A DNA stretch of 64,000 nucleotides from an uncultured delta proteobacterium (GCA_963775425.1 CAVZJB010000009.1:96001-160000), one strand, 5' to 3'; shown: positions 12,128 through 31,593, numbered from the stretch's first letter. The notes: generated by a model from the letters alone, not told the origin. Numbers and translations are program-made.

Positions 12128-13381
12128 TCAATCCATGGGGTTGTCGTCGTCGTTTTCGCCGAGGCGAAACACGGGCTCCTTGCCGAGCGGCCACAAAAAC
12201 GCAGCCGCCGGCCGCTCCGACAAGGGCGCGGGGAGCGCGCGCTCGATGACGCGCACGTCGCGCGCGCCGGCGACGACGGCGAGCTGCCCCGCGTGCGTCT
12301 CCGCGGCGAGGCGCACGGCGTTCAAGCGATTGGCGTAGGGCTCGAAGATGTGGAACTCGAGCGCGATGGAGTCGCTGTCGCGGAACTGCCACAGGCCGAT
12401 GCAGCGCCCCTCCTCGATGATGATCGAGGTGGTGTTGCCGGCGGGGTCGTAGACCCAGGGAGCGAAGCGCGGCTCGACGACGCGGGTGCGGTCGCGCCAG
12501 CCGAGTGGGTACGCGTCCCACAACGGCAGGAACAGGATGCGCTCGGGTTGCCCGCCGCCCTTGCGCGTCTGGTCGGCGACCTCCCGCAGAGTGACGAGGC
12601 CCTCGCCGAGCCCGTCGACGGGGAACTTCACGACCTCGCGGCCGAGCACCTCGAGCACGCGGCGCACGTCGGCCATGGGCAGGCCCGTCCACCAGGCGGC
12701 GTCCTCGAGGCGGGCGGGGCCGTACGTGCGCAGATAGCGGCGAACGACCTCGACGCGGGCCTGCTCCACCTGCTCCGGGATGAGCGACGCGCCCTCGAGC
12801 CACTGCTCGGCGAGCGCGTAGTTGAACTGGTTGCCCTTCCAGCCCTTGGACGTGGTGCGGACGAGCACGCCGATGTCGCAGAGCTTGCGCAGCAGCAGGC
12901 GCTCGATGTCGACGCCGGGGCGGCGCTCCTTGCCGGGGTACAAAAGCGCGATGACCTCGCTCTCCTGCCGCGGCATGGTGAACGCCTCGGAGCGCAGCTT
13001 CTCGGCGAAGCGCTGAAGCTGGAGCTCGTCGATGCCCTCGGAGCGCAGGCGGGACATGCCCGTCGTCGACAGCGTGTCGTACAGCGCGCGGAAGTAGAGC
13101 GGGTAGTCCTCGCTCGCGAGCAGGAACAGCGACCCGCGAAACGCCGTGGCGCGCACCAACGACCAATCGTTGACGAGCGCCTCCTCGAGGTCCCCGAGGG
13201 TGAGCGTCGGGCGCCGGGCCATCAGCGAGAGGTACGCGATGGGGTTCGGGCCGTAGATGCCGGGTCTTCTGTGGATGGCTTCCACCAGGGTCTCGCCGTC
13301 CCCGAACGCGTTCAGCGTGGTGTGGTGGTAGCGCTGCAGTTGCTTGAGGGGCGTGGCCTCGAAGGTGCCCTTGGCCGGCAT
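12128..13381 (-). CDS. AlkZ/YcaQ-like winged-helix (HTH_42) protein
   Basis: AYLSLMARR, LVRATAFRGSLFL, RRYLRTYGPARLEDAAWWTGL, FLPLWDAY and IGLW motifs. Confidence 0.85.
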   Translation of the reverse strand: MPAKGTFEATPLKQLQRYHHTTLNAFGDGETLVEAIHRRPGIYGPNPIAYLSLMARRPTLTLGDLEEALVNDWSLVRATAFRGSLFLLASEDYPLYFRALYDTLSTTGMSRLRSEGIDELQLQRFAEKLRSEAFTMPRQESEVIALLYPGKERRPGVDIERLLLRKLCDIGVLVRTTSKGWKGNQFNYALAEQWLEGASLIPEQVEQARVEVVRRYLRTYGPARLEDAAWWTGLPMADVRRVLEVLGREVVKFPVDGLGEGLVTLREVADQTRKGGGQPERILFLPLWDAYPLGWRDRTRVVEPRFAPWVYDPAGNTTSIIIEEGRCIGLWQFRDSDSIALEFHIFEPYANRLNAVRLAAETHAGQLAVVAGARDVRVIERALPAPLSERPAAAFLWPLGKEPVFRLGENDDDNPMD

Positions 13382-13487
13382 CGGAGCTCCGTGTTCGCTG
13401 TCGTCGTCGAGGGCCTACCCCGGCGCCCCGACACAAACAACCGCGGTTCCGTGCGGCCCGGCTTCCCGTCGGACGGTTCACGGCGGA

Positions 13488-13682
13488 TCAGGGGGCGGCG
13501 GTGGGGACGGGCGTGTCGGGCGTCTTGCGCTCGGCAAACCAGATGGCGATGCCGAGGGCGACCGCGGAGATCACGAGGACCACGACCAGGTGGCGGCCCA
13601 CCCCGGTGGGCCGTGGCAGCCGCGTGCCGAACATGGAGCGCTCGGCGGTCACCATCTGGTCGGGGTCATGTGGCTCGGGCAC
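13488..13682 (-). CDS. Small single-TM membrane protein (64 aa)
   Basis: One TM (LVVVLVISAVALGIAIWFA); TAGCCT 6 nt upstream of the GTG. Confidence 0.6.
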   Translation of the reverse strand: MPEPHDPDQMVTAERSMFGTRLPRPTGVGRHLVVVLVISAVALGIAIWFAERKTPDTPVPTAAP

Positions 13683-13862
13683 GCCCCGAGGCTACCGCAT
13701 CCGGAGCCACCCGAAGCAAGCGCGGGGGCGCCGCGCCCGGGAGCCCCGGTTCGTGGCGGACGGGCGGTCAAGCCCCAAAAGGAGCGCGGCGGAAGCTGCC
13801 GCCGGAGTCGTCCGCCGCTCCGGGCGCGCGGAGCGCGCGGCTGTTCGTGAGCGTCAGCGAAC

Positions 13863-13905
13863 AAAAAAGGGAGCCGTCGCCGGCGTTGAAACAACGCCGA
13901 CGACG
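13863..13905 (-). terminator. Intrinsic terminator downstream of sctT
   Basis: Minus strand: 14-bp stem CGTCGTCGGCGTTG/CAACGCCGGCGACG, TTT loop, then GCTCCC-TTTTTT. Confidence 0.65.
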
Positions 13906-14030
13906 ACCGAAAGCGGCGACCTCTCCCGTCGACGCCCGGACACAGCGTTTCCCCCCTCGGCTCGCCTCGCGGCGGGCCGTCACCTGATGCCCCCCGAGCT
14001 CCGCTGTGTCCGACCCCGACGCTGAACCTA
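13906..14030 (-). ncRNA. Candidate structured RNA (unassigned)
   Basis: Perfect 11-bp stem 13937-13947 with 14002-14012; inner CTCGG/CCGAG stem; CGCC-GCGA-GGCG GNRA hairpin on the minus strand. Confidence 0.35.
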
Positions 14031-14083
14031 ACGAGGACGCGGCCGCGCGCAGGGCTCGCGTGTGGATCGATCACGCGTGCGCC

Positions 14084-14905
14084 TCAGCTGAGGAGCTTGA
14101 TGATGTCGTCGACGTGGCCCAGCATGATCACCGAGTTCTTCAGCATGGTCTGGATGAACAGGTCGATGCAGAGGAAGAACACGATGCAGCCGCCGATGAC
14201 CTTGGCGGGCATGGCCATGAAGTACGCGTTGATCTGCGGGGCCACGCGGTTGATGAGGCCGAAGGACGTCTCGAGCGTCAGCGTGACGATGCCGATGGGC
14301 ATGGCGAGGAGCACCGCGATCTCGAGGATCTCGGCGGTGAGCCGCGCGTTGTACTCGACGAAGGCGGCGTAGCCGGCGTGGAAGTGCGGGAAGTCGTTGA
14401 TGGGGACCGCGACGAAGCTCTCGAACAGCGACGCCAGGAACGGGTGGTGCAGATCCAGCGCCAGGAACAGGGCGAGCAGCAACTGGTACTGCAGCGTGCC
14501 GAACGCCGACGAGCGCTCCTCGATCTCGGGCACCTGCAACTGGATCTGGTTGGCGCCGCGCAGGATGTCGATGAGCTGGCCGGCGATCTCCACGGTGTAG
14601 AACACCTTGGACGCGACGAAGCCGATGACGAGGCCGACGAAGGTCTCCTTCATCATCATGAGCGTGAACCCGATGGGCGTGATGGGCAGCCCGTGCTCCG
14701 GGCTGACGTTGGCGAGCACCGTGGGCCACAGCAGGATGGTGAGCGTGACGCCGACGCCCATCTTCACCTCGACGGGCGCGTTCTTGCCGCCGAGGAACGG
14801 CACGAGGACGACCATGGCCATGATCCGCGCCATGATCAGCGCGAACACGACGATGGTCTTCGTCATGTCGAGCTGCTGCGCGAGTGCAGCCATGAAGTTC
14901 TGCAC
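14084..14905 (-). CDS. sctT: T3SS export apparatus SctT (FliR/EscT family)
   Basis: VPFLGG..PVEVK, KETFVGLVIGF, AGQLIDILRG and FGLINRVAPQIN motifs. Confidence 0.92.
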   Translation of the reverse strand: MQNFMAALAQQLDMTKTIVVFALIMARIMAMVVLVPFLGGKNAPVEVKMGVGVTLTILLWPTVLANVSPEHGLPITPIGFTLMMMKETFVGLVIGFVASKVFYTVEIAGQLIDILRGANQIQLQVPEIEERSSAFGTLQYQLLLALFLALDLHHPFLASLFESFVAVPINDFPHFHAGYAAFVEYNARLTAEILEIAVLLAMPIGIVTLTLETSFGLINRVAPQINAYFMAMPAKVIGGCIVFFLCIDLFIQTMLKNSVIMLGHVDDIIKLLS

Positions 14906-14913
14906 GGCCGCTC

Positions 14914-15186
14914 CTAGTGGATCACGTCGGGGATGCTCCCGAGGCAGAGCGTCGCGAAGCGAAGCATCGTGGCCCCGAGCCAGCCGCCGGTGGCGGCGAG
15001 CACCGCGAAGACGGCGATCATCTTCGGGACGAAGGAGAGCGTCTGCTCCTGGATCTGCGTCGTCGCGGAGAACACCGCGACCAGCACGCCGATGAGCAGG
15101 CTCAACAAGATGGGGGGCATCGACACCACGATGGTGATGAGGATGGCCTCGTTCGTGATTTGAACGATGAAGTCCTGGACGGTCAT
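14914..15186 (-). CDS. sctS: T3SS export apparatus SctS (FliQ/EscS family)
   Basis: GVLVAVFSATTQIQEQTLSFVPK motif. Confidence 0.95.
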   Translation of the reverse strand: MTVQDFIVQITNEAILITIVVSMPPILLSLLIGVLVAVFSATTQIQEQTLSFVPKMIAVFAVLAATGGWLGATMLRFATLCLGSIPDVIH

Positions 15187-16052
15187 TGGTACCCCAAGAC
15201 GAGGCCGCGGGTGATGAGGTACCACCCGTCTACGAGGACGAAGAGCAATATCTTGAACGGCAGCGAGATGGTTGTCGGCGACAGCATCTGCATGCCGAGC
15301 GCCATCAATATGTTCGACACCACCATGTCGATCACCAGGAACGGCACGAAGATGATGAAGCCTATCTGGAAGGCCTTGGTGAGCTCGCTGATGACGAACG
15401 CGGGCGTGATGATCACGAGGTCGTCGGGCTGAAGCGACGCGCGGTCCTCCTCGGCGCGCAGCCGATAGGCGACGCGATAGAGCATCTGGCGGTTCTTCTC
15501 ATTGCTGTTTTTGAGGAGGAACGCCTTGATGGGCTCCTTGGCCTGCTTGAGCGCGTCGACGATGATGTCGACGTTCTCCTTCTGCAGGAGGTCGCCGCCG
15601 CGTCTTATCTCGATGAGGCGGTCGACGCGGTTGTAGATCTGCAGACCCACGGGCTGCATCACGTACGCGGTGAGGATGATGGCCATGCCCGTGATGACGG
15701 TGGTGGGCGGCGCCTGCTGCGTGCCGATGGCCTGGCGGGTGATGGACAGGACCACCGCGATCTTGACGAAGCTCGTCACCATCATCCCGACGAAGGGGAT
15801 GAGGGCGAGGCCCGCCATGGCCGTCATGAGGATGAGCGGGCGGTTGGAGATGGAGTCGTTGCCGAGGAGGTCGACGCCGCCGACGGTGGCGCCGTGGGCG
15901 ATGCCGCGACCCTTGGCCAGGGCGACGCACGGCGCGAGCGACACGACGAAGAAGACGAACGTGGCCCAGCCCACCCCGCGGGCGAAGCGCAGGGTGCGCG
16001 GCTCGTCCTTGTGGTGTCCGAAGCAGGAGCGGAGGGCTTCGCGGAGCTTCAT
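15183..16052 (-). CDS. sctR: T3SS export apparatus SctR (FliP/EscR family)
   Basis: TSFVKIAVVLS..QQAPP, PAFVISEL..AFQIGF and LPFKILLFVLVDGW motifs. Confidence 0.96.
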   Translation of the reverse strand: MKLREALRSCFGHHKDEPRTLRFARGVGWATFVFFVVSLAPCVALAKGRGIAHGATVGGVDLLGNDSISNRPLILMTAMAGLALIPFVGMMVTSFVKIAVVLSITRQAIGTQQAPPTTVITGMAIILTAYVMQPVGLQIYNRVDRLIEIRRGGDLLQKENVDIIVDALKQAKEPIKAFLLKNSNEKNRQMLYRVAYRLRAEEDRASLQPDDLVIITPAFVISELTKAFQIGFIIFVPFLVIDMVVSNILMALGMQMLSPTTISLPFKILLFVLVDGWYLITRGLVLGYQ

Positions 16053-16768
16053 GCGGTGGCCTTCTCGTCGTCGTTCGTCTTCTTGGCGTCGCGGCGCCTG
16101 AGGGCGTCCATGAAGGACGGCGGCGGCGCCGCCGCGGCCTTGGTCTCCACGTCCTTCAGGAGCGTGACGCCGCCCTCGCCGGCGGCGAGCAGCATCTGCT
16201 TGCCGTCGACCTCGACGAGGAAGAGCGAGCGCTTGGCGTCGAGGCCGACGCGCTCGACCACCTTGACCCGCCTGCCGAGGTTCTGGCGCTCGACGAGCTT
16301 GCCGAGCCCCTTGGACAGCGTGAGGTACACGAGCCCGAGGACGATGCAGAGCATCAAGATGGTCTTCAAGAGCGGCCCGACGAGGTCGCCGAGCCCCGAC
16401 TGCGGCGCCGGCAGCGGCTTGAGCGCGTCCGGATCCGGCGGGGGCGCCGGGGGCACCTGCGGCGCGGCGTGTGCCGCCGGGTTTGCCGCTGCGTCCCCGT
16501 CGTCCGCGCGCGCGGCGGCGACGTCCGCGCCGGTCGCGGGCGCCGCGTCGTCGTCGCCGGCGGGGTCGTCGCCGACGCCCGGCGGCGGCAGAACGAGCTT
16601 CACGGCGTCGTCGGCCGTGGCGTCGTCGTCGGCGGCGTGCGCGGCGGCGGTGCCGCCGAACGGCGCGCTGTCGCCGGCGTTGTCGGCGAGCGCGGGGCCG
16701 GCGAGCGCGAGCCCGACGACGACGAGCATGGGCGACGGGAGGGAGCCACGCTGGAGCTTGCTGATCAC
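16049..16768 (-). CDS. fliO: FliO-like protein
   Basis: TM followed by VKVVERVGLDAKRSLFLVEVDGKQMLL..EGGVTLL; directly upstream of sctR; TAAGCT 6 nt before GTG. Confidence 0.8.
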   Translation of the reverse strand: MISKLQRGSLPSPMLVVVGLALAGPALADNAGDSAPFGGTAAAHAADDDATADDAVKLVLPPPGVGDDPAGDDDAAPATGADVAAARADDGDAAANPAAHAAPQVPPAPPPDPDALKPLPAPQSGLGDLVGPLLKTILMLCIVLGLVYLTLSKGLGKLVERQNLGRRVKVVERVGLDAKRSLFLVEVDGKQMLLAAGEGGVTLLKDVETKAAAAPPPSFMDALRRRDAKKTNDDEKATA

Positions 16769-16878
16769 GGCCGCAGCTTAGCGCGCCGCGCTCCAGGCGT
16801 GGCGAGCGCCCCCGTCCGCGCGTGGGGCCGGGCCTACATCCGCGCCGGACCCCGGGCGGACGCCACGCGGGTGCCGGG

Positions 16879-18342
16879 TCATTTGACGAGGGAGAGGATC
16901 CGGACGCCCAGCTCGCCGTCGATCTCGACGAGCTCGCCCTTGCCGACGCGCTTGCCGTCGACGACGAGGTCCACGGGCTCGCCGGGGGCGCGCGACAGCT
17001 CGATGACCTGGCCCGCGCGCAGTTGGACGACGTCGGCGGCGGAGACCATCACGCGGCCGAGCTCGACGACCATCGCCACGGTGATGTCGTCGAGGAGGCC
17101 CGCGGCCTCGGGCGAGGGCTCGTCCTCGGGCTCCTCTTCCCCGTCGGAGTGCTCGGCCCCCGGCTCGTCGTCGACCGCGGTGCCACCCGGGAGCGGCGCG
17201 CCCCCGCCGGCGTCGTCGATGGGGGCGGCGACGCGGTCGGCGGCCTCCCGGCGCAGCCGGGACCCGAAGGCGTCGGCGTCGACGAGACCCGCAGCGGACA
17301 GCCGCTTGGCGTTTTCTTCCATCTCCCCGCCTTCTACCTCGCCGAAGCCCTCGTGGAACAGATGCGCCTTTGCGCGCGGCTCGCCCGCGGGCGAGATGGC
17401 CTCGATCTGGACCTCGTAGCGCCCGCTGTCGCCGACGACGAGCGCGCCGGAGATGACGCCGCGGTGCCCGTCGCCGAGCCGGCACTGCACGCGGCCGCTC
17501 AGCGTTTGCGGCTGGTCCTCGTCCTCGGGCGGCACGATCGTCACTTCGCTCTCCTCGACGAGGATGATGTCGTCGATCTCGAGGGACTCCACGTCCGCCA
17601 TCTGCAGACCGATGCGGCCTACCTCGACCACGAGCGGCGCCGTCAACAGCCGCACCACGTCGATGCGCTCGTCGAGCCGGCGGAGCCAGCGCGACAAGGC
17701 CGGGCCCTCCGCGGGGACGTCGGGCGAAAACGCGTCGCGCACGAAGCTCTCCGGCAAGTAGACGCGGCAGAAGCCCACCTTGACGTCGAAGAACAGCCGG
17801 AAGCTCAGGCACAGCAGGGGCGCGTCGACCGGGAAGCGCTCCGCGAGCGACGCCATGGTCCCGTGGACCCCCTCGAGCTTCAACGCCACGTCCTTGTCGG
17901 CGGCCCCCTCCTGCAGGAGCTGCAGCACGCGCAACAGCACGAAGGAGAACACGCCGTCCTCGATCTCCGACAGCGGCCTTTGTCCGTCGGCGTCCTCGGC
18001 GTTCCCCCCGAGGAGCTTGTCGATGGCCTGCTGCGCCACGGTGAGATCCACCTCGAGGAGCGCCTTCTCGGTGCGCGGCGGCAGCCCGATGACGGCGGCG
18101 CACGTGGGCTCCGCGAGGACCTGCGCGAGCTCTCCGTCGCCGAGCGCGCGCACGCCCTCGAACCACAGCTCGACGTCCGCGTGGACGAGCGGCCCGAGCA
18201 TGTCCTTGAGCCAATCCTTGAAGTCGCTCTCGAACGCCGTCTGCGGTAGGTGACACAACAGCGCGTTTTGCACCTGCACCTGCCGGCGGCTGATGCGGGG
18301 GAGCGTTCCCTGCAGCTTGAACTTGCGGAGCTTCCTCGCCAT
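16879..18342 (-). CDS. sctQ: T3SS cytoplasmic ring protein SctQ (two SpoA/FliMN domains)
   Basis: C-terminal VELGRV..LRAGQVIEL..PVDLVVDGKRVGKGELVEIDGELGVRI; a second SpoA-like region centrally. Confidence 0.9.
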   Translation of the reverse strand: MARKLRKFKLQGTLPRISRRQVQVQNALLCHLPQTAFESDFKDWLKDMLGPLVHADVELWFEGVRALGDGELAQVLAEPTCAAVIGLPPRTEKALLEVDLTVAQQAIDKLLGGNAEDADGQRPLSEIEDGVFSFVLLRVLQLLQEGAADKDVALKLEGVHGTMASLAERFPVDAPLLCLSFRLFFDVKVGFCRVYLPESFVRDAFSPDVPAEGPALSRWLRRLDERIDVVRLLTAPLVVEVGRIGLQMADVESLEIDDIILVEESEVTIVPPEDEDQPQTLSGRVQCRLGDGHRGVISGALVVGDSGRYEVQIEAISPAGEPRAKAHLFHEGFGEVEGGEMEENAKRLSAAGLVDADAFGSRLRREAADRVAAPIDDAGGGAPLPGGTAVDDEPGAEHSDGEEEPEDEPSPEAAGLLDDITVAMVVELGRVMVSAADVVQLRAGQVIELSRAPGEPVDLVVDGKRVGKGELVEIDGELGVRILSLVK

Positions 18343-19343
18343 CAGTCCTCGAAGACCTCGCGGATATCTTCCTTGATCTCGTCCACGGCTTCCTTTTTCT
18401 TGCCGGGGAAAAGCAGGCTGAGCCCGATCCCGGCCCCCAACAATCCACCCACGACGACGAGTGACAACGGGGTCGGCACGTGGGTCGGCGCCTCGGGCCA
18501 CACCCAGGCGAGGAGCGGCAGGCACATCTTGGCCCCGATGAAGCCGAGCACCAAGCCGAGCGCCGGCTTGAGGAACCGGAGCCCCCACAGCGCGCCCGAC
18601 AGCAGGAAGAACAGCGACCGCAGGCCCAGGATGGCGAAGATGTTCGAGGTGTAGACGATGAACGGGTCCAGGGAGATGCCGAACACGGCGGGGATGGAGT
18701 CGAGCGCGAAGACCACGTCGCTGAGCTCGACCGACACGAGGACGAGCAGGAGCGGCGTGGCCTTCCTGACGCCCTCTTTGAGCGTGAAGAAGCGGTGGCC
18801 GTCGTAGCTGTCGGTGACGCGGACGAAGCGGCGGGCGAGCTTGACGACGCGGTTGTCCTTGACGTCGCCTTCGTCGTCGCCGCCGCGCTCGACGATGAGC
18901 TTGATGCCGCTGTACAGGAGGAACGCGCCGAAGACGTAGATGAGCGCGTGCACCGTGGACAGAAGCGCGGTGCCGCCGATGATGAACACGCCGCGCAGGA
19001 CGACGGCGCCGAAGATGCCCCAGAACAGCACGCGGTGCTGGTAGGCGTCGGGGACCTTGAAGGCGTGAAACAGGAGCAAGAAGACGAAGAGGTTGTCGAC
19101 GGACAGCGAGTACTCGATGACGTAGGCCGAGAAGAACTCGAGGCCGCTCTCACGGTCCGACAGCACGAGGACGGCGACGCCGAACCCGCAGCCGAGCGTC
19201 ACCCACACGATGGTCCACGCGAGCGCCACGCGCTTCTTCATCGGCGCGTCGCTGCGGCTCCCGATCCACAGGTCCACCGCCAGCACCACGACGACGATGG
19301 CCGTGAACGCGATCCACAGCGCCGGGGTGCCGATGGAGTGCAC
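18342..19343 (-). CDS. terC: TerC/Alx family membrane protein
   Basis: EYSLSVDNLFVF, QHRVLFWGIFGA, DVVFALDSIPA and TSNIFAILGLRSL motifs. Confidence 0.95.
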   Translation of the reverse strand: MHSIGTPALWIAFTAIVVVVLAVDLWIGSRSDAPMKKRVALAWTIVWVTLGCGFGVAVLVLSDRESGLEFFSAYVIEYSLSVDNLFVFLLLFHAFKVPDAYQHRVLFWGIFGAVVLRGVFIIGGTALLSTVHALIYVFGAFLLYSGIKLIVERGGDDEGDVKDNRVVKLARRFVRVTDSYDGHRFFTLKEGVRKATPLLLVLVSVELSDVVFALDSIPAVFGISLDPFIVYTSNIFAILGLRSLFFLLSGALWGLRFLKPALGLVLGFIGAKMCLPLLAWVWPEAPTHVPTPLSLVVVGGLLGAGIGLSLLFPGKKKEAVDEIKEDIREVFED

Positions 19344-19424
19344 CCGGGGGAAGTACCCGCTGAGGGGACGGGTGCCAAGCAAGACCCGCGGCGCAGCGAT
19401 GCGCGGGCGCGCGCCCACGCTTCG

Positions 19425-20330
19425 TCAGCGGGTCTCGAGGCGGGCCAGCGACAGGCCCTTCTTGTCGAGGCGGCGCATGAGGTCTCCCTTGGAAGCCTCG
19501 ATGAGCCGCTTGCTGTTCTGATCGAGGTTCTCGAAGCGCAGCGAGACCTTGCCGTCCTCGGCGGACACGCGCATGCGCGCGCCCTTGAGCGGGCCGTCCT
19601 TCAGCTCGATCTGGAATTCCTTGAGGCCCTTGTCGTTGACGGCGAGGTGCACGGCGCTGACGAGCTTGTCGAGGAGCTCGGCGGGGATCTGCTTGACCTC
19701 GTGCGCCGGCGCCGCCCCCTGCGCCGCCTGCAACTGAGCGGCCTTGACGGCGCCGAGCGCGCCGGCGCCCTCGCGGCCGCGCCCGTCGGACTCGCCCTTG
19801 CCGTCGGCGTCGATGGCGGCGTTGGGCAATGCGGCGTTGCGAGCGTCGAGCTGCACCGCCTCCGCGTCCATCTCCTTGGCCGTCTCCTTCTTGTCGAGGT
19901 CGACCTTGCGATCGTCGCGCTCGACGCGGTCGTGCTCGACGCCCTGCTGGCGCCGCACGAAGCGGCCCGTGTCCGCCGACTGCGTCGCCGTGGCGTTCTT
20001 GTTGAGCACGCCCTGGAAGCCCTTGGCCTGCTGCATCGCGCGCGTCTGCTTCTGGATGCCGCTCCTGGCGAGGCGCGCGGCCTGGGCCTCGCTGTGGGCC
20101 TCCTTGGCGACGTGCTCGCCCTCCTGCTCGGCGTGGTGCTCCTCGTGCTGCGCCTTGAGCGCCTTGTCCTTCGTCGTCTCGGCGGTGCGCTGCCCGGCGC
20201 GCACCAGCTTGCCGAACGCCGCACGGTTCTTCTCGGTGGACTTGGCGTCGCGGGCGTTCTTGTCGAGCTTCTTCTGGAGCCGCTCAGCCTCCGCCCTTTT
20301 GTGGGCGTCTTCTTCGACACGCGTGGACAT
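19425..20330 (-). CDS. SctP/FliK-like length-control protein
   Basis: Charged N-terminal region, C-terminal FQIELKDGPLKGARMRVSAEDGKVSLRF (T3S4-like), position between sctO and sctQ. Confidence 0.7.
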   Translation of the reverse strand: MSTRVEEDAHKRAEAERLQKKLDKNARDAKSTEKNRAAFGKLVRAGQRTAETTKDKALKAQHEEHHAEQEGEHVAKEAHSEAQAARLARSGIQKQTRAMQQAKGFQGVLNKNATATQSADTGRFVRRQQGVEHDRVERDDRKVDLDKKETAKEMDAEAVQLDARNAALPNAAIDADGKGESDGRGREGAGALGAVKAAQLQAAQGAAPAHEVKQIPAELLDKLVSAVHLAVNDKGLKEFQIELKDGPLKGARMRVSAEDGKVSLRFENLDQNSKRLIEASKGDLMRRLDKKGLSLARLETR

Positions 20331-20417
20331 GAAAAACCCCGGTGAAAAGCATCGCGGAGTGTATCGGCGCCGCCGCCGACGGGGGTGCGACCCCGTCATG
20401 ACGCGGCGCGCCGTCCG

Positions 20418-20669
20418 TCAGCGACGCGCGGCGGCGAGCTCCTCGCGGAGCTTTTCGATCTCCTCGCGGAGCTTCTCGTTTTCGCGCTGGACCTCGTCGG
20501 CCGTGGGCGGCGGCGGGTCCTCCTTGGCGGCGGCCCCGTCGCGCGGCCCCAGGCGCTTTTTCATGTGCGCGCCGGCGACCTTGGCGATCTCCACGCCGAC
20601 GCCCGCCAAAAGCGCCTTCCCCAGCGTGCGCCCGAGCTCCGCGATGACCTTTCCCACGGAGGCGTTCAT
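20418..20669 (-). CDS. Small amphipathic/coiled-coil protein
   Basis: ATGA overlap with sctO; ENEKLREEIEKLREEL heptads. Confidence 0.7.
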   Translation of the reverse strand: MNASVGKVIAELGRTLGKALLAGVGVEIAKVAGAHMKKRLGPRDGAAAKEDPPPPTADEVQRENEKLREEIEKLREELAAARR

Positions 20670-21178
20670 GCGTCACCGAGCTCCTCGAGGAGCTTCTGGA
20701 AGTACTGGGCCTGCGCGATGTCCTCGGCGGCCATCTCTTCCTTCAGCATGCGCTCGCGCTTCACCTGCTTGAGCCACTTTTCCTTGTGCTTCTCGAGGGC
20801 TTTGAAGTCCTGCGTACATTTCACGACAACTTCCATGGCTTCGGCGGCGATGCGCTCGGCTTCCTGAACGCGCTCTTGCTGCCTGTCGATGTCCACCTGG
20901 TAGGCCTCTTCCTGCTGCTTGAGTCGCTCGATGTGCCGGTCGTTTTGCTGGATCTGGCTCACGGTGTACTCGCCCATGCGGGTGCGCTCGGCGTACTCGG
21001 CCTTCTTGTTCTGGCGCATCTGCACCATCTCTCTGAGCTTCTGGCGCATCTCGTCGAGCTTGCGCTCCTCCTCGACGACCTTCCTGCGCTTCTCCGCGTA
21101 GGCCTCCTCGGCCTCCTTCTTCTTCTTCTCCCGCATCTCGTAGAGGACCTGCAGGCGGTACGCCGGCGACTTGGCCAT
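20666..21178 (-). CDS. sctO: T3SS stalk protein SctO (FliJ/YscO-like)
   Basis: YRLQVLYEMRE start, fully coiled-coil, KALEKHKEKW motif; first co-oriented gene after sctN. Confidence 0.8.
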   Translation of the reverse strand: MAKSPAYRLQVLYEMREKKKKEAEEAYAEKRRKVVEEERKLDEMRQKLREMVQMRQNKKAEYAERTRMGEYTVSQIQQNDRHIERLKQQEEAYQVDIDRQQERVQEAERIAAEAMEVVVKCTQDFKALEKHKEKWLKQVKRERMLKEEMAAEDIAQAQYFQKLLEELGDA

Positions 21179-21252
21179 ATGGGATGAGATTACCGTCTGC
21201 TCGCGGCGGCGTCATTGCACAGGCCGCTTCCGGGCGTGGTACGTGCTGCTCT

Positions 21253-23032
21253 GTGTCGCTCCCGGGCACGGCGCTCTTCTTCGCCCTCCTCGCGGTCGTC
21301 GTCGCGGGCGTGGCAGGCGCCCTGCGGCGCCTGCAGGCCGGCCGGCCTTCCACCGCGGCCGCGGCGGCGCTGGCCGTCCTGGCGGTGGGCCCGGACCTGC
21401 TCGGGCGCCCCTTTCACGACGTCGGCGCCGGCCTGTGTCTCACTTCAGTCCTGTGCGCGCCGGGCGTCCTCTTTTTGCGCCGCCCCGCCCCGGCGCGGAC
21501 GGGCGACCCGCGCGCGCCGGGCCCTCCGCTCGACGCGCTCGCCGCCGCCCTCGCGCTCCTCCTGTTCGCGGGCATCGCCTGGGTGACGCTCACGACGTTC
21601 CTCTGGGACGAGCGCAGCACGCACTTCGGGCTCGCCTCCGTCGTCGCCAGGGGCGGGTTGCCGGTGTTTCACCCCGAGTTCCCCGGCGCGGCGTTTTCGT
21701 ACCACGCGGGCTTCGACGTCATCGCCGGCGCCGTCCGGCGCTTCACGCGGCTGCCCATCGAGCGCTGCATCGACGTCGTCGGCCTCGCCGCCGCGGCGTC
21801 GCTGCTGTGGACGCTCCTCGACATCGGCCGCGACCTCGGCGGACGCGCCGGCGCGCGCCTCGCCCCCGCGCTCGCGCTGCTCGCCTACGGCCCGCTCTCC
21901 CTGTGCACCGGCGTGGTCTACGGCCTCGATCCCGCGTGCAGCGCCCTGTTCCCCGCGTCGTGGCAGCACACGGCCTGGCTGCCGGCGCCGGTGATTCTCG
22001 AATTTCTTCCAACACCCGCAGGCCCTCGGCATGGCGGTCGTCCTGCCCGCGCTCGTCCTCGGCAGCGACGACGACCAAAAGCGCTTCGGCGCCGGCGTCG
22101 CCCTGCTCGCGCTGGCGTCACAGGCGCACGTGGTGCTCTTCGGGCTCGCCGGCCTCGGCCTCGCCGCCGTCGTCGTCGCGCGCACCGTGCGCACGCGGGC
22201 CGTGGCCGCCGGCGCCGTCCGCGGCGCCGCGCTCCTGGGCGCGCTCGCGTTCGCGCTCCTCGCCGGCGGCTTCTTCCATACGCCGGAGGCGCCCGCGCGC
22301 TTCCTGTGGGTCGGGCACTTCCGCGCCGCGTTCCACGCCGGCGTCCTCGGGAGCATCGCGCTCAACCTGGTGCTGTTCGCGCCCGCCCTCGCCACGCTGC
22401 CGTTCGCGGTCTTTCGCGCGCGAGCCGGCGGGCTGCGCCTCGCGCTCGTCGTCGCCGCCGCCGCCGGGTTCATCGCCGGCAACGTCGTCAGCTACGAGCG
22501 GAGCTGGGACATCGTGAAGCTCTTCGGGGCCGCCGCCTTCTGCGCCAACCTGCTCCTCGCCGACGTGCTGGCGGCCGCCGTCGCGCGCGTGCGGCCCGCC
22601 GTCGTCGCCTGCGTCGCCGCCGCCTGCGCCGTCGCCGGCGGCGTGTGGCTCGTGCGCTTCGGCCCGCTCAACGGCGCCATCGCCCCGCGCTACACCGAGC
22701 GCGCGCCCGCGCCGCTCGCGCGCGACCTCGACGCGCGCTTCGGCGACGTCGTCGGCCTCGCGCCCGTCCTCACCGACGCGCCGCAGATCCAGGAGCTCGG
22801 CTTCGCCCTCGTCGGGTTCGACTGGCGCGACGCCAGCGTCGGCTTCCTCGTCGACCGCGACCGCCGCGACGCCCTCACCAAGCTGCGAGACCGCGCGCTC
22901 ACGTCGCTGTCGCTCGCCGACGTGCGCGCCACGGGAGCGCGCTTCGTGCTCGTGCGCGCCGGGCGCGCCGTGGACCCCGCGCTCGAGCGCGTCGGCGACG
23001 TCGACGACCACGCGCTCTACCGCGTGCCCTGA
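21253..23032 (+). pseudogene. Polytopic membrane protein (possible GT-C fold) split by a +1 frameshift near 21997
   Basis: First frame is hydrophobic to PAPVI (WDERSTH, YHAGFD); second frame resumes SNFFQHPQALGMAVV and stays hydrophobic to TGA 23030-23032. Confidence 0.7.
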
Positions 23033-23036
23033 TTCT

Positions 23037-24470
23037 TCAGTCCTGGGCGTCCGCGAACATCTCCACCAGCGCCTGCACCGTGTCCTCGAACGCGGAGGCC
23101 TCCGTGGTGCCCTGCTTGAGGAACGTCTCGACCTCTTCGATCTTGTCGATGGCGTAGTCGACCTGCGGATCGGTGCCGTACTGGTACGCGCCGAGGAGGA
23201 TGAGGTCGCGGTTCTTCTCGTAGGTGGCCATCACCTGCCGCATCTTGGACGCGGCCTTTTTGTGCTCGTCGGCGGCGATGCCGGTCATCACGCGGGACAG
23301 CGACGGCAGCACGTCGATGGCGGGCCAGTGGTTTCGCGCGCCGAGCTCGCGGTTGAGGATGACGTGGCCGTCGAGGATGCCGCGCACCTCGTCGGCGATG
23401 GGCTCCTCCATGTCGCCGCCTTGCACGAGGATCGTGTACATCGCGGTGATGGAGCCGATGTGGTTGTTGCCGGTGCGCTCCATGAGCTTCGGGATGAGCG
23501 CGAACACGCTCGGCGGGTAGCCCTGGCGCGCAGGCGGCTCGCCGAGCGCGAGGCCGATCTCGCGCTGCGCGCGGGCGAAGCGGGTGGAGCTGTCCATCAT
23601 GAACAGGACGTCCTTGCCCTCGTCGCGGAACCACTCCGCCACCGCCGTGGCGACGAAGCAACACTTGAGGCGCACGAGCGAGGGCTGGTCCGACGTGGCG
23701 CACACGACGACGGAGCGCTTGAGGCCCTCTTCGCCGAGGGAGTCGTGGATGAACTCGAGCACCTCGCGACCGCGCTCGCCGACCATGCAGACCACGACGA
23801 TCTCGGCGGAGGTCTGCCGCGCGATCTGTCCCATCAACGTCGACTTGCCGACGCCGGAGCCCGCGAACAGGCCGACGCGCTGGCCGCGGCCGACGGTGAG
23901 CAGGCCGTCCCACGCGCGCACGCCGAAGGAGATGACGCGATCGACGGGTTGGCGCGTGTAGGGATCGGGGCACTCGCGCTCGACGGCCCAGTCCTCGAGG
24001 CCCTCGATCTCCTCGATGGAGCCGAGGCCGTCGATGGGCTCGCCGGTGCCGGAGAGCGTTCGGCCGAGCAGGCCGTAGCCGCACTTGATCTGGAACGGCT
24101 TGCCGCTCGGGATGACCTCGCTCTCGGGGCCGAGCCCGGCGTTCTTGGGATTGCCGAGCGGCATCAAGAAGACGGCGCCGTCCTTGAAGCCGACGACCTC
24201 GGTCTTGAGCGCGCCGACGTCTTCCTTGGGCGACGTCACGTAGCACATCTCGCCGATGCGCACGCCCGGCACCGCAGCCTTGATGATGAGGCCGGTGACC
24301 TCGGTGACGCGGCCGCGGACGCGGTACGGCTTGGCCTCGCGGATCTCCTCGATGGCCCGACGCAGCTCGATGACCTTGCCCTCGGGGACGCCGTCGACGT
24401 GGGGCGCGGGCTCGCCGACGAGGTTCTCCTCAAGGGCGTCGAAGTCCGGCTTCTTGCGCGTGGTGGTCAT
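23037..24470 (-). CDS. sctN: T3SS ATPase SctN (FliI/YscN family)
   Basis: GQRVGLFAGSGVGKST, GERGREV, DSSTRFARAQREIG and GILDGH motifs. Confidence 0.96.
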   Translation of the reverse strand: MTTTRKKPDFDALEENLVGEPAPHVDGVPEGKVIELRRAIEEIREAKPYRVRGRVTEVTGLIIKAAVPGVRIGEMCYVTSPKEDVGALKTEVVGFKDGAVFLMPLGNPKNAGLGPESEVIPSGKPFQIKCGYGLLGRTLSGTGEPIDGLGSIEEIEGLEDWAVERECPDPYTRQPVDRVISFGVRAWDGLLTVGRGQRVGLFAGSGVGKSTLMGQIARQTSAEIVVVCMVGERGREVLEFIHDSLGEEGLKRSVVVCATSDQPSLVRLKCCFVATAVAEWFRDEGKDVLFMMDSSTRFARAQREIGLALGEPPARQGYPPSVFALIPKLMERTGNNHIGSITAMYTILVQGGDMEEPIADEVRGILDGHVILNRELGARNHWPAIDVLPSLSRVMTGIAADEHKKAASKMRQVMATYEKNRDLILLGAYQYGTDPQVDYAIDKIEEVETFLKQGTTEASAFEDTVQALVEMFADAQD

Positions 24471-26641
24471 TGGCCCTTGAGGATCGCCCTCACCTTGGAG
24501 GCGTCCTCCGCGTCGGGCTTGAGCTCGAGGTACTTCCGGTAGTGCTTGCGCGCGAGATCGTTCTTCTTGAGCTTGGCGTAGGCCACGCCGAGCGTGCGGT
24601 GCACGTTGGCGTTGTTGCCGTTGACGTAGGGCGCGAGCTCGCTCACGGCGGCGCCGGGATCGCCCGCGAAGATCTTCTGGGTGGCGCTGCTCAGCGCCTT
24701 GTTGATCTCGGCCTGCTTGTTGTGGTGCGTGACGCGGGGCTCGTCGGTCTTGCGCTTGTGCTTGGGCTCCGCTCGCACGGCGTGCCCGCCGCTGTCGCCC
24801 GCGGCGTCGTCGGCGGCGGCGAGGGCGGCGTCGTCGTCCGCGCCCGCGGCGGCGCCGTCGTCATGCGCGTCGCCCGGGGCGGCGTCGTCGTGCGCGGCGG
24901 CGTCGTCTGCGCCCGCGGCGGCGGCGGCGGCGGCGGGCGCGTCGTCCCCGGTGGGGCCGACGTCGGGCTTGGCGCCGCTGCCGTCCGGGACGGGCGCCGT
25001 GTCGGGCGTCGTCGGCGTCGGTGAGGCCGCGGCGGTGGGTGGGGGCGGCGTGGGCTTGTCGTCGCCGCCGCTCGTGGCGACGAGCACGGCGATCACCGCG
25101 AGCAGCGCGATGACGACGACGACGCCGATGACGATGATGTTCGGGCGGCCGCTCGGCTGCGAGAAGCCCTCGAACGGCGCCGCCGACACCGCGTCCGCCT
25201 GCTTCTTGCGAACGGGGTTGGTGACCCCGGTGCCGGCGTCCTGCTCGAAGTCGTCGCCGGCGGTGTCGGCGATGCGGGCGCGCTCGATCTCCTCGGGGGA
25301 GACGGCGAAGCGCTCGCCGATGGCGACGAAGCGAAGGCGGACGCGGCCGAGCTCGACGACGTCGCCGGGCTTCAACACGGCCTGCTCGACCTCCTCGTTG
25401 TTGACGAGGACGCCGTTGGCGCTCTTGAGATCGAGGATGCGCACGCGATCGCCCTCGCGCACCACCTTGGCGTGGTTTCGCGAGACCGACTTGTGCTCGA
25501 TGGTGATGTCGTTGTCCTCGGTGCGCCCGAGCACCGCCTCCGCCGCACGCAGCGAGAAGGTGCTGCCCGCGAAGATGGTGTTGAGCACCACCAGGCGCGG
25601 GTACACCACGTCCTCGGCGCCGGGCGCGGCGCGCATGGCCTCGGTCTGCTCCTCGAGGGCGGTGCGTGCGTCGTTGGGACGCGCCGGCGCCGCCGGCGTC
25701 CCCGGCGCGCGCCCGTTGTCCGGCGACGGCGTGGCCGGCCGCGCGTCGGGGGCGCGGTCCTGCGCCCGCGGCTCGGGCTTGGTCTCGAGCACCCCGACGT
25801 GGCCGCCGATCTCGGGCACCGCCGCCGTCGGCGATCCCTCCGCCTTGTGCGCCACCGCCTTGTGCGCCGCCGGCGGCGGCGCGGGCGGCATGGTGATGGG
25901 CGGCGGCGACGTCGCCTGGCGCACCGTGGGCTCGAGCTCGGCCTCGCGCTGTCGCGACGGCAGCGCCGCGGCGTCCACAGTGGGCGCCTCCATGGCTTCG
26001 AGCATCTCCATGGTGACGCGCTCGGTGTCGCCGCCGTCGGGATCGAAGCCGCTCCGCGCGTTGCTGCCGTTTTCCGGCGCCGGCTGCGGCGCGGGCTGCG
26101 CCCCCGCGACCGCGGGCGACGGCACCGTGCGCTCGTCGCTGAGCGGGTGATCTTCCTGGGTGGCGAGCCCGGGCACCGACAGCGCGGGTCCGCCCTGCGG
26201 AGGCTCCCAACGCTGCGTGTCGCCGGCGAACTCGTCGTCGTCGGGGCCGTGGGGAGCGGTGTCGCGGTGCAGCGGCTGCGTGGCCTGGGCGCCCTCGGCC
26301 GCGCCGTTGTGCGGGTGTTGCGGCGCGGTCACGCCGAGGGTGTCCTGCGCGTGAAGCGCGAGGTGGTAGTCGCCGATCTGGATGGTGTCGCCCTCGTGGA
26401 CGTGCACCCGGCCGTCGATGCGATCCCCGTTGAGCTTGATGCCGTTGAAGCTCTTCAGGTCCTCGATCAGGACGTGGCCGTTCTCCTTCGAGAGCTTGGC
26501 GTGGTTGCGGGAGACGTTCCGCTCCGTGAGCCGGATGGTGTTCCCTTCTTTACGCCCGATGGTGATGACGTCGCGCGTGAACGGCACGACGATCTGCTTG
26601 CCCGCATCGTCTTCGATGATCAGCTTCCAGGTCGAAGGCAT
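24467..26641 (-). CDS. Double-FHA, single-TM, C-terminal TPR protein
   Basis: FHA1 IGRKEGN..VSRNH..DLKSFNG; FHA2 LGRTEDN..VSRNH..DLKSANG; TM IIVIGVVVVIALLAVIAVLV; TPR HRTLGVAYAKL..YRKYLELKP; ATGA overlap with sctN. Confidence 0.88.
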   Translation of the reverse strand: MPSTWKLIIEDDAGKQIVVPFTRDVITIGRKEGNTIRLTERNVSRNHAKLSKENGHVLIEDLKSFNGIKLNGDRIDGRVHVHEGDTIQIGDYHLALHAQDTLGVTAPQHPHNGAAEGAQATQPLHRDTAPHGPDDDEFAGDTQRWEPPQGGPALSVPGLATQEDHPLSDERTVPSPAVAGAQPAPQPAPENGSNARSGFDPDGGDTERVTMEMLEAMEAPTVDAAALPSRQREAELEPTVRQATSPPPITMPPAPPPAAHKAVAHKAEGSPTAAVPEIGGHVGVLETKPEPRAQDRAPDARPATPSPDNGRAPGTPAAPARPNDARTALEEQTEAMRAAPGAEDVVYPRLVVLNTIFAGSTFSLRAAEAVLGRTEDNDITIEHKSVSRNHAKVVREGDRVRILDLKSANGVLVNNEEVEQAVLKPGDVVELGRVRLRFVAIGERFAVSPEEIERARIADTAGDDFEQDAGTGVTNPVRKKQADAVSAAPFEGFSQPSGRPNIIVIGVVVVIALLAVIAVLVATSGGDDKPTPPPPTAAASPTPTTPDTAPVPDGSGAKPDVGPTGDDAPAAAAAAAGADDAAAHDDAAPGDAHDDGAAAGADDDAALAAADDAAGDSGGHAVRAEPKHKRKTDEPRVTHHNKQAEINKALSSATQKIFAGDPGAAVSELAPYVNGNNANVHRTLGVAYAKLKKNDLARKHYRKYLELKPDAEDASKVRAILKGQ

Positions 26642-26725
26642 CCGCGAGTGCGCACTCCTGGCCGGCATCATACGTCGACGAACAGGCCGGCCGCCAAGCC
26701 GTGACCGGCGCTGTGTTTGGAGACC

Positions 26726-27982
26726 CTATCGCACACCGCGGGCGATGTTCTTGCCCGCCGGCCACCGCCGGATGACGTCCAGGGCGGCGGCCACCTGCGG
26801 ATCCCGCTTGACCCGCTCCGCCCCGTGGATGCCCGGCGGCAGATCCGCGGCCGGACGCACCGGGACGTCCGGCTCGATGCCGACGTCCTGGATGGAGCGC
26901 CCGCTCGGGGTGAAGTAGCGGGCGATGGTGAGCTTCAGCCCGGCGCCGTCGTCGAGCCCGAACAGCGTCTGCACCGATCCCTTGCCGAAGGTGCGGGTGC
27001 CGACGACCACGGCGCGCTTGTGGTCCTGGAGCGCCCCGGCGACGATCTCGCTCGCCGACGCGGTCCCGTCGTTCACGAGGAGCACCAGCGGGTAGTCCGG
27101 CTCCGTCCCCTCCGGCCGCGCCACCTCCCGCTCCGTGTTCCTCGGGTTCCTGCCCTGGGTGGTGACGATCAGGCCGTCTTTGAGGAAGCGGTCCGCCACG
27201 CGCACGCCCTCGTCGAGGAGGCCCCCGGGGTCGTCGCGCAGGTCGAGCACCACGCCCGCCGGCTGCTGTTTGCCGAGCGCCCGCGCCCGCTTGCGCGCCC
27301 CCGCCAGCGCGTGCGCCAGCTCCTGGTCGGTGCGCTCCTGGAACGCGCGGATGCGGACGTAGGCGATGTCGTTGCCGAGGTCGTCGTCGTCGACGGAGGG
27401 CACGCGCACCTGCCGGCGCACGAGCGGGATGTCCCGCGCATGATCCCAGCCCTTGCGCGCCACAGTGAGGACCACGCGGGTGCCGGGGACGCCGCGCATG
27501 AGCTTGACGCTGGCCTCGAGCGGCTGGCCGCGCATGCTCTCGCCGTCGACGGCGAGGATCTTGTCACCGGGCTTCAAGCCCGCGTGCGCTCCCGGGCTGT
27601 CCGCGTGCACGACCTCCACCTGGATGACGTCGCCGCCGGGCTCTTTGTAGGGCCCCACCTCGATGCCGAGCCCGCCGAACTCGCCCGCGGTGTCCTCGCG
27701 GAGCTTCTCGTACTCGGCGGGGCGCATGAAGGTCGTGTGGGGGTCGAGGCCGGAGAGCATGCCCGTGATGGCGTCGTAGACCAGCTCGTCCGGGTCGAGC
27801 TCGTCCACGTAGTTCTGCTGCACGTACGTGAGCACCTGCGAAAACACCCGCAGCTTCTTGTACGTGCCGTCGACGCCGCCGGCGTACGCGACGCCTGCGC
27901 CGCCGGCGAGGACGACGCCGCACAACAGTCCTGCGACGAACGCAGCGAGGGAAGGCGTGCGGAACAGCGGGGGACGGCGCAT
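26726..27982 (-). CDS. ctpA: S41 carboxyl-terminal processing protease
   Basis: LDPHT, PDZ domain, LDLRDDPGGLL, TASASEI, TFGKGSVQ and GIEPD motifs. Confidence 0.93.
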   Translation of the reverse strand: MRRPPLFRTPSLAAFVAGLLCGVVLAGGAGVAYAGGVDGTYKKLRVFSQVLTYVQQNYVDELDPDELVYDAITGMLSGLDPHTTFMRPAEYEKLREDTAGEFGGLGIEVGPYKEPGGDVIQVEVVHADSPGAHAGLKPGDKILAVDGESMRGQPLEASVKLMRGVPGTRVVLTVARKGWDHARDIPLVRRQVRVPSVDDDDLGNDIAYVRIRAFQERTDQELAHALAGARKRARALGKQQPAGVVLDLRDDPGGLLDEGVRVADRFLKDGLIVTTQGRNPRNTEREVARPEGTEPDYPLVLLVNDGTASASEIVAGALQDHKRAVVVGTRTFGKGSVQTLFGLDDGAGLKLTIARYFTPSGRSIQDVGIEPDVPVRPAADLPPGIHGAERVKRDPQVAAALDVIRRWPAGKNIARGVR

Positions 27983-28019
27983 GGACACCTCGGGTTGCCG
28001 AGTCTATAGCGACCGGCCC

Positions 28020-29771: not shown

Positions 29772-29863
29772 GGGCCCGCCGACGTGCTTCGCCACGTTGT
29801 CCGCACGGCCCCTTGGGCGGCTCCGCCGCGCGCTGCTCCGAGCGCGTTGGTTGCGTCAGCCCG

Positions 29864-31489: not shown

Positions 31490-31593
31490 CTCACCGGTTG
31501 TATCCCCCCACCTGCGACGAGGAAAGAACGCGAACGATGTGGCTCGACCGTTTTCGCGCTCGTGCGCGGCCTTTTTGTTCGTATGCTGCACCC

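Follow-up and report, generated by a model that had tools for sequence, protein, structure and literature searches.

What kind of machine is encoded by a type III secretion gene cluster in which no needle or secretin gene is recognised? The question is raised by a window of 64,000 nucleotides of DNA from an uncultured delta proteobacterium (contig C9:96001-160000 of the genome referred to here as G000, an assembly of 8.26 Mb in 18 contigs that is 94.55% complete). The cluster lies at 14084-26641 (positions without a contig name are counted from the first letter of the window), and a first-pass annotation had put it forward as a partial, undescribed type III secretion system (T3SS). We conclude with good confidence that it is the core operon set of the needle-less and secretin-less T3SS of the Myxococcota (T3SS*, the 'Myxo' non-flagellar T3SS (NF-T3SS) of Abby and Rocha), present here in a flagellated uncultured member of the phylum, with its genes scattered and with TerC and FHA additions. 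The cluster is a known system and not an undescribed one, being the orthologue of the T3SS* found in the accessible parts of two published accounts (PMC3459982, PMC12075869); what is new is the variant, which is scattered, TerC-bearing and Kil-less and belongs to a flagellated host. The needle-less T3SS* is of interest both as a proposed evolutionary intermediate between flagellum and injectisome and as a working part of myxobacterial predation.

The ATPase gene, sctN (23037..24470, on the minus strand like every gene of the cluster except one open reading frame (ORF) of 333 amino acids; Pfam ATP-synt_ab and T3SS_ATPase_C), bears most directly on this identity. We observed that its product was 64-66% identical to the SctN of Myxococcus xanthus and Archangium, ~52% identical to Ysc-type SctN, and 45% identical to G000's own FliI. 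As M. xanthus has a single SctN-class match above 32% identity, the relationship is one of one-to-one orthology. In a maximum-likelihood tree of 28 SctN rows, the window's SctN fell within a Myxococcota clade of 14 rows that includes M. xanthus (97/100). G000's own FliI grouped with the FliI proteins of Salmonella, Azospirillum and Rossellomorea in the same tree, and the injectisome ATPases formed a third group; the branching order among the three groups is left open by the tree. The kinship with the Myxococcus-type needle-less T3SS, which the first-pass annotation had already suspected, is supported by the identity values and by the shared clade.

The NCBIfam equivalog cut-offs, which separate injectisome from flagellar proteins and were used alongside Pfam, gave the same picture. 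SctR, SctQ, SctU and SctV exceeded the injectisome cut-offs and fell below the flagellar ones. The export gate protein SctR (15183..16052; Pfam FliP E 2.5e-67) scored 226 bits against yscR (cut-off 208.6) and 192 bits against fliP (cut-off 217), and was 37% identical to G000's own FliP. The sorting platform protein SctQ (16879..18342; Pfam FliMN_C E 3e-18 and FliM E 4e-10), in which a FliM-like N-terminal part is joined to a FliN/SpoA C-terminal part, scored 101.4 bits against SpaO_YscQ (cut-off 100.8).

These scores also bear on the idea that the cluster serves the flagellum as an additional export apparatus. A complete flagellar locus is present on the same contig (C9:334-381 kb), ~220 kb away, and the cluster has flagellar traits in its FliO-like gene, its FliM-domain SctQ and a FliH-type SctL encoded elsewhere in the genome. 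However, the flagellar locus (flagellin, FlgH, rod, FlhF/G, FlhA, FliA, MotAB, FliE-F-G-H-I, FlgD-E, FliL-M-N-O-P-Q-R and FlhB) has export genes of its own, including FliH/I, FliM/N, FliO/P/Q/R, FlhA and FlhB. The window's SctN stands outside the flagellar group in the tree, the four proteins named above pass the injectisome and fail the flagellar cut-offs, and genomes of f14, the family to which the complete Myxococcus-like genomes belong, have this cluster too, many of them with one SctN/FliI-class match only. We therefore consider service to the distant flagellum extremely improbable. The first-pass annotation had named a full flagellum elsewhere, together with a grouping of SctN and SctR with FliI and FliP, as the evidence that would speak against its reading; the flagellum was found, and the tree and the cut-offs place the two proteins apart from FliI and FliP. 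The presence of a T3SS* and a complete flagellum in one cell indicates that the T3SS* is not what remained after the loss of a flagellum. A second FliI-class match (44-45% identity among the matches listed) was seen in 4 of the 10 relatives in the family of G000 (f1; genera g2, g3 and g4). We found no description of flagellated Myxococcota, or of such organisms with a T3SS, in a literature search that left subscription journals mostly outside.

Gene order places the cluster in the same family. A scan with SctN, taking one genome per species, gave 80 related loci (a second set held 13), nearly all of them labelled as Myxococcota, Myxococcales or Deltaproteobacteria metagenome-assembled genomes and including M. 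xanthus, Archangium gephyra and other Myxococcaceae. We observed that 60 of 71 related loci had sctO no more than 1.5 kb downstream of sctN, that sctP, Q, R, S and T followed sctN in 43-53 of the 80, and that the order N-O-P-Q-(FliO)-R-S-T was held in at least 43 of the 80. The Archangium locus reads TPR, sigma, SctI-like, SctJ, FliG-like, SctL (FliH type), N, O, P, Q, FliO, R, S, T and U, followed beyond U by a small FlhB-C-like gene, further genes and SctV; the SctJ/FliG-like pair sits just upstream of sctN in many relatives. The accessible portions of two reports give the M. xanthus T3SS* as the cluster mxan_2434-2464, with a deletion of mxan_2438-2451 and with sctQ as MXAN_2445 (PMC12075869, PMC10196010), and the Archangium locus fits the mxan_2438-2451 set as given there.

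In the window itself, 12 genes were confirmed at 14084-26641, and the gene list, order, start/stop overlaps and terminator given by the first-pass annotation held in every point that we checked. Since the window has a G+C content of 72%, it contains numerous spurious ORFs; genes were called with a codon-position G+C filter together with Pfam. Transcription would run from a gene for a double-FHA protein (24467..26641) through sctN to the stalk gene sctO (20666..21178; FliJ-like, Pfam YscO-like E 1e-18), an ORF of 83 amino acids (20418..20669), the sctP-like gene, terC, sctQ, the FliO-like gene, sctR, and the two further export gate genes sctS (14914..15186; Pfam Bac_export_3 E 2e-25) and sctT (14084..14905; Pfam Bac_export_1 E 6e-52). 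SctT is 33-80% identical to its positional orthologues in related loci. Some 175 nt past the sctT stop, the minus strand has a terminator-like hairpin (13908-13872) of 17 pairs, 11 of them G-C, with a T-run after it. Overlaps of four bases join the FHA gene to sctN, sctO to the 83-residue ORF, the FliO-like gene to sctR and sctR to sctS, and terC and sctQ have one base in common (ATGA). The sctP-like gene (19425..20399, with a likely start at the ATG at 20330), the product of which would be ruler-like, gave weak family matches (HpaP E 1.4e-4; Flg_hook, the FliK C-terminus, E 0.006); its T3S4/FliK C-terminal-like domain is C-terminal, and the protein is 28% identical over 318 residues to the Archangium positional orthologue, which itself matches Flg_hook at E 1.5e-9. 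As a side observation, the G+C content falls to 64% at 14001-16000 (sctR/S/T) against ~72% around it.

Where, then, are the remaining parts? No sctU, sctV, sctJ, sctD, sctL, sctC or flagellar axial gene was found at 10-31 kb of the window, as had been annotated, and in whole-genome searches every one of these that was found fell outside the window. The search with Archangium proteins against G000 by tblastn, followed by Pfam, located the other T3SS* parts at eight further loci, which makes a total of nine loci on five contigs. SctV (C4:94355-96505, between lexA and an epimerase gene) and SctU (C16:1085265-1086482) each pass their injectisome equivalog cut-off. SctJ is followed by the FliG-like gene at C9:217983-220042, and the SctL/FliH-like gene is at C9:230243-231130. 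A SctI/FliE-like gene on C14 is a weak call (FliE E 0.026; 35% identity to the Archangium gene). A pair consisting of a 177-residue protein and a TPR protein is on C8, the dedicated sigma factor is on C13, and a pair of TPR and FHA-transmembrane (FHA-TM) genes is at C9:69055-71419, ~26 kb before the window. This last pair is the orthologue of an Archangium pair that is convergent to sctV (L116:4226-6436; TPR and a tail-anchored double-FHA). FHIPEP, FlhB/SctU and YscJ/FliF are each represented by two genes in G000, one in the flagellar locus and the other standing alone. By the standard of M. xanthus the T3SS* of G000 is complete, though spread; the cluster had seemed 'partial' for the sole reason that its other parts sit elsewhere in the genome.

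The same genes form one contiguous cluster in Myxococcaceae and Archangiaceae, and one may ask if the dispersed genes of G000 are a relic in decay, unable to assemble any longer, which is what the M. xanthus loci were once suggested to be. The spread over nine loci and five contigs fits such a reading, as does the SctU motif, which is NPAH in place of NPTH (G000's FlhB has the canonical autocleavage motif NPTH). The genus g3 is more extreme than the window, with sctN alone among unrelated genes (HDOD, SUI1, DUF2237 and zinc ribbon; L019, L021, L025 and L028) and terC-sctQ-fliO-sctR-S-T as a separate block. Yet every expected part is present in G000 and every part found is an intact open frame, and orthologues of SctN, SctQ and the FHA protein are kept at 53-92% identity in all 10 family relatives. 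Moreover, Chlamydiales also operate a scattered T3SS, according to the accessible part of the comparative study (PMC3459982), and the M. xanthus orthologue works in prey lysis, in so far as the available text of that report goes (PMC12075869). We consider decay very unlikely, and take G000 as showing that the T3SS* tolerates complete gene scattering.

The features of a canonical injectisome were searched for across G000. No T3SS secretin was found; PF00263 gave two matches, which are PilQ (with PilMNOP) and GspD of the type II secretion system (with GspC/E/F and pseudopilins). The needle family (PF09392) and the SctD periplasmic domain (PF16693) were likewise without a match, in searches that gave no signal above the cut-off in any control genome. 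The want of a T3SS secretin corresponds to the published 'Myxo' NF-T3SS, described in the accessible part of its source as having no secretin, SctF or translocon (PMC3459982).

The first-pass annotation had also suggested a partnership with a Tad-like Kil system. In M. xanthus the Kil system recruits the T3SS*, which acts in prey lysis, as given in the accessible portion of that study (PMC12075869). No support for this partnership was obtained in G000, where the searches gave neither TadE nor RcpC, and no secretin beyond the two named above. In a 120-genome sample of the phylum, RcpC turned up in 9 of 12 genomes of f14 and in 0 of 21 from the order to which the window belongs. T3SS*-type SctN (at least 63% identity) was found in at least 22 family codes among 150 matches listed from a 300-genome sample of the phylum; one unpublished genome (G200) is counted here, and none of our conclusions rests on it. 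Reviews, as far as their accessible text goes, confine the T3SS*, or its co-occurrence with Tad, to Cystobacterineae/Myxococcaceae (PMC10849154, PMC11821767). The occurrence of the T3SS* throughout an order in which no Tad/Kil marker was found suggests that its ancestral job was probably wider than Kil-coupled prey lysis. Separately, we observed that the family f2, in the same order as G000, consists of very small genomes (0.3-3.4 Mb, mostly >90% complete), 14 of 21 of which keep a T3SS*-type SctN (8 among the matches listed, at 68-74% identity). These genomes may represent reduced, dependent lifestyles that retain this secretion system.

We further evaluated the genes that had been singled out as unusual. 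The FliO-like gene (16049..16768; Pfam FliO E 3e-11; TIGR03500 E 1e-11, below cut-off) encodes a protein in which two hydrophobic segments (residues 10-28 and 129-147) flank an acidic stretch of low complexity. It had been regarded as a lineage novelty. A FliO-like match between sctQ and sctR was however seen in 34 of 46 related loci, and FliO in the Myxococcota T3SS is already in print, in the accessible part of that source (PMC12403147). FliO is ancestral to the family and not new to the lineage.

The terC gene (18342..19418; a TerC/Alx-family membrane protein, Pfam TerC E 4e-49) gave a different result. Its product has 8 predicted hydrophobic segments and matches TIGR03718 with 370 bits (cut-off 246.4) and PF03741 with 167 bits (cut-off 27.8). 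In G000 the gene immediately upstream of sctQ is terC, and we observed the same placement in 9 of 10 family relatives (g2, g3 and g4) and in one of two f6 genomes. The T3SS-linked copies are 60-72% identical to the window's TerC, and housekeeping TerC proteins, including the one on C16 of G000, are 45-49% identical to it. In a FastTree tree of 15 rows (the G154 row was left out) the six linked copies formed one clade (support 1.0) on a long stem. The alignment showed that they have a loop insertion and an acidic C-terminal tail in common, and that the acidic core motifs of TerC are kept. No Rfam riboswitch match at E <=0.01 was obtained upstream of four housekeeping terC loci or at 13000-28000 of the window. 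A literature search, with subscription journals mostly outside it, found nothing on TerC with type III secretion in Myxococc*. The placement of terC beside sctQ looks new and specific to the lineage.

The double-FHA gene encodes a protein of 724 residues with two FHA stretches, a hydrophobic segment at residues 502-520, a Pro/Ala/Asp-rich low-complexity region at residues 521-650 and then one small C-terminal TPR (Pfam FHA and TPR; hydropathy). Orthologues were found in 10 of 10 f1 genomes, 2 of 2 f6, 1 of 1 f3 and 1 of 2 f4. Coordinate comparison places the gene next to sctN in g1, g2, g4, f3, f4 and f6, and this was seen directly in 5 of 66 loci and in L099. Coupling of a double-FHA/TM/TPR gene to sctN across the order looks new. 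TerC and the double-FHA protein had been proposed as extra partners of the machine, and both proved to be lineage-specific additions that are conserved. Upstream of the FHA gene lies an S41 C-terminal processing protease gene (26726..27988, minus strand; Pfam Peptidase_S41 and PDZ), a conserved neighbour. Within 26726-31591 this protease is joined by a phosphoglucomutase gene on the plus strand and a Ser/Thr kinase gene at 29864-31591, and in the sister genus all three are conserved upstream neighbours of the FHA gene.

Could this protein be the SctD of the lineage, the outer of the ring proteins in the inner membrane, tying the sorting platform to the membrane? Its two FHA domains match PF16697, the SctD cytoplasmic domain, at 102.9 bits (cut-off 33.2), a single TM segment follows them, the gene is translationally coupled to sctN, and no other SctD candidate was found in G000. 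However, PF16697 also matches generic FHA proteins (46 matches in Archangium), and the plain FHA model scores higher here. As the part after the TM segment is low-complexity sequence and one small TPR, with no ring-building domains, the protein is without what defines SctD. Further, Myxococcaceae have another double-FHA-TM protein beside sctV, in 5 of 5 genomes that are complete. Its gene, a member of the TPR pair, is 13-22 kb away from sctN in all five complete genomes of the Myxococcaceae type, and the G000 orthologue is at C9:69055-69930, outside the window. In the long Myxo locus, the 'large inner ring protein' call probably refers to this TPR-paired, tail-anchored double-FHA protein. The SctD reading is accordingly quite unlikely. 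We also asked if the window's FHA gene corresponds to the double-FHA-TM gene that Archangium has beside sctV, and rejected this orthology: the best match in G000 was at C9:69061-69960, and the window's gene came tenth.

Are these additions part of the machine at all? They could be neutral passengers (TerC, the FHA gene and the 83-residue ORF) kept by linkage with no role in secretion, next to an ordinary T3SS* orthologue. The sctN/sctO junction is open to insertions, with a private ORF in G000 and an unrelated Cys-rich ORF of 128 amino acids in the sister genus. Several further observations weigh against our overall reading, and those on the placement of terC and on g3 also favour the passengers. 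terC was not next to sctQ in the family member G125, in sampled f3, f4 and f5, or in any Myxococcaceae-type locus (1 of 80 loci had it), so that the T3SS* works there without TerC. The ATGA junction of terC and sctQ was seen only in G000, the gaps in its relatives being ~50-200 nt. FHA orthologues were found in 0 of 21 of the small f2 genomes, 14 of which keep SctN. In g3 the FHA gene remains beside the S41 protease with sctN elsewhere, so the S41-FHA pairing outlasts the FHA-sctN pairing, and the primary partner of the FHA protein may be the protease and not the T3SS. The overall reading is also limited by the reach of the negative results: PF09392 gave no match in G000 at E 0.1 and no control genome rose above the cut-off (the searches covered the needle family and not the translocon families), the control genomes were also silent for PF16693, and with a genome that is 94.55% complete the absences are provisional. 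The scattering itself could signify a loss of coordinated function.

Against the passengers, the terC-sctQ adjacency is kept in 9 of 10 relatives (in three other genera) and in one f6 genome, while sctN-sctO and sctP-terC broke in the same genomes. The linked TerC proteins form a separate long-stem clade with a conserved C-terminal tail of their own, which fits a new and retained function, and the start and stop of the FHA gene and sctN overlap. Taken together, linkage without function is possible for these genes, though on the unlikely side, and we retain the reading of a T3SS* with lineage-specific additions.

The 83-residue ORF has no Pfam or NCBIfam family match; its N-terminal helices are conserved and rich in Gly/Ala, and are followed by a Pro-rich linker and, at the C-terminus, a coiled-coil helix. 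It is 48-49% identical in three loci of the genus g2 and was found only there. Its AlphaFold model has three helices (mean pLDDT 67, pTM 0.31). The 333-residue ORF (22031..23032, plus strand, six hydrophobic segments), which matches no Pfam or NCBIfam family, sits between sctN and sctO, with its end 4 bases away from the sctN stop. None of the 80 related loci and none of the 13 gave a match to it, Atlas clusters gave only 'hypothetical protein' and a weak DUF6541 lead, and paralogues are present on C4 and C11. This ORF is a private insertion and not part of the system. The 128-residue ORF at the same junction in g2 (L018:11470-11856) is zinc-finger-like with two TM segments; different ORFs at one junction in G000 and g2 point to a hot spot of insertion. 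A promoter 5' of sctO could not be read from an alignment with three relatives, which have a coding ORF there. As a further side observation, the motif CGATA[AG] was present in 4 of 11 upstream regions of T3SS* units (FHA, SctI-like, the C8 pair and the TPR-FHA pair) vs 25 of 603 controls (binomial p 8e-4, for a motif chosen post hoc). We take it to resemble the -10 element of a sigma-28 promoter. An unbiased 7-mer search of the 11 upstream regions gave a best p of 8e-5 among 16,384 words, which is not significant.

How might such a machine work? By homology, SctRST with SctU and SctV would form the gate in the inner membrane, with FliO helping SctR to assemble, and SctN, SctL, SctO and SctQ with the FliG-like protein would make up the cytoplasmic part below a SctJ ring. 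SctP together with SctU (NPAH) may still switch the substrate class. The inner-membrane apparatus would move unfolded substrates by proton-motive force, with the ATPase assisting, and since there is neither secretin nor needle these substrates should end in the periplasm. The membrane-anchored FHA protein may link Ser/Thr-kinase signalling to the ATPase or to the sorting platform.

For TerC we can offer a tentative role by analogy. In Bacillus MeeF and MeeY, which are TerC proteins, act with Sec export to metalate exported enzymes, according to the accessible parts of two reports (PMC10550928, PMC12096827). The linked TerC might in a similar way bring a divalent metal (Mn2+ or another) to the periplasmic face, where proteins that are exported unfolded would then be metalated. 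Export to the periplasm, a metalating TerC and a regulatory FHA protein are all what we infer from sequence. In an extended form of the proposal, the dedicated TerC would be an accessory subunit of the T3SS, and the T3SS* a stand-alone, periplasm-directed exporter in need of no Tad/Kil pilus or secretin; we regard this extended form as rather unlikely. If true, it would give the first case of a T3SS that has a metal chaperone built in, and the conserved TerC insertion in any case offers a testable idea of how unfolded T3SS substrates acquire metal.

Among known systems, the T3SS* of M. xanthus is thus the nearest. The two have orthologous SctN proteins, the same order N-O-P-Q-FliO-R-S-T and the same accessory set (SctJ, FliG-like, FliH-type SctL, SctI-like, SctU, SctV, sigma and TPR proteins), and neither has a T3SS secretin, with no needle gene detected in G000 by a search in which no control genome rose above the cut-off. 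They differ in that the genes of G000 lie at nine loci and those of M. xanthus in one cluster; in that G000 has TerC before sctQ and the 83-residue ORF after sctO; in that the position held by sctL in M. xanthus is taken in G000 by a double-FHA/TM/TPR gene, which is coupled to sctN; and in that the host of G000's system has a complete flagellum, with no Tad/Kil markers found. The flagellar export apparatus (FliHIJ, FliMN, FliOPQR and FlhAB) consists of homologous parts, and the FliO-like protein, the FliM-domain SctQ and the FliG-like protein are flagellar-type characters; the cluster is nevertheless separate from G000's flagellar copies (37-45% identity) and has no rod, hook, filament or Mot genes. 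The Chlamydiales injectisome resembles the system of G000 in having NF-T3SS core genes split over several loci, as given in the accessible part of the source (PMC3459982), but belongs, by description only, to another NF-T3SS family, with secretin, needle and translocon.

MeeF/MeeY of B. subtilis and Alx of E. coli are of the same family as the linked TerC (TIGR03718 above cut-off); MeeF and MeeY work with Sec, whereas terC of G000 stands in a T3SS operon, has a lineage-specific loop and an acidic tail, and is without a riboswitch. TagH/Fha1 of the type VI secretion system and GltG of M. xanthus are membrane-associated scaffolds that likewise place FHA domains on an envelope machine, and their NCBIfam similarity to the FHA protein is weak and far below cut-off. 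By score the FHA protein is thus no member of these families, and it differs from them in its partners and in its architecture, where two FHA domains are followed by a TM segment and a small TPR on the periplasmic side.

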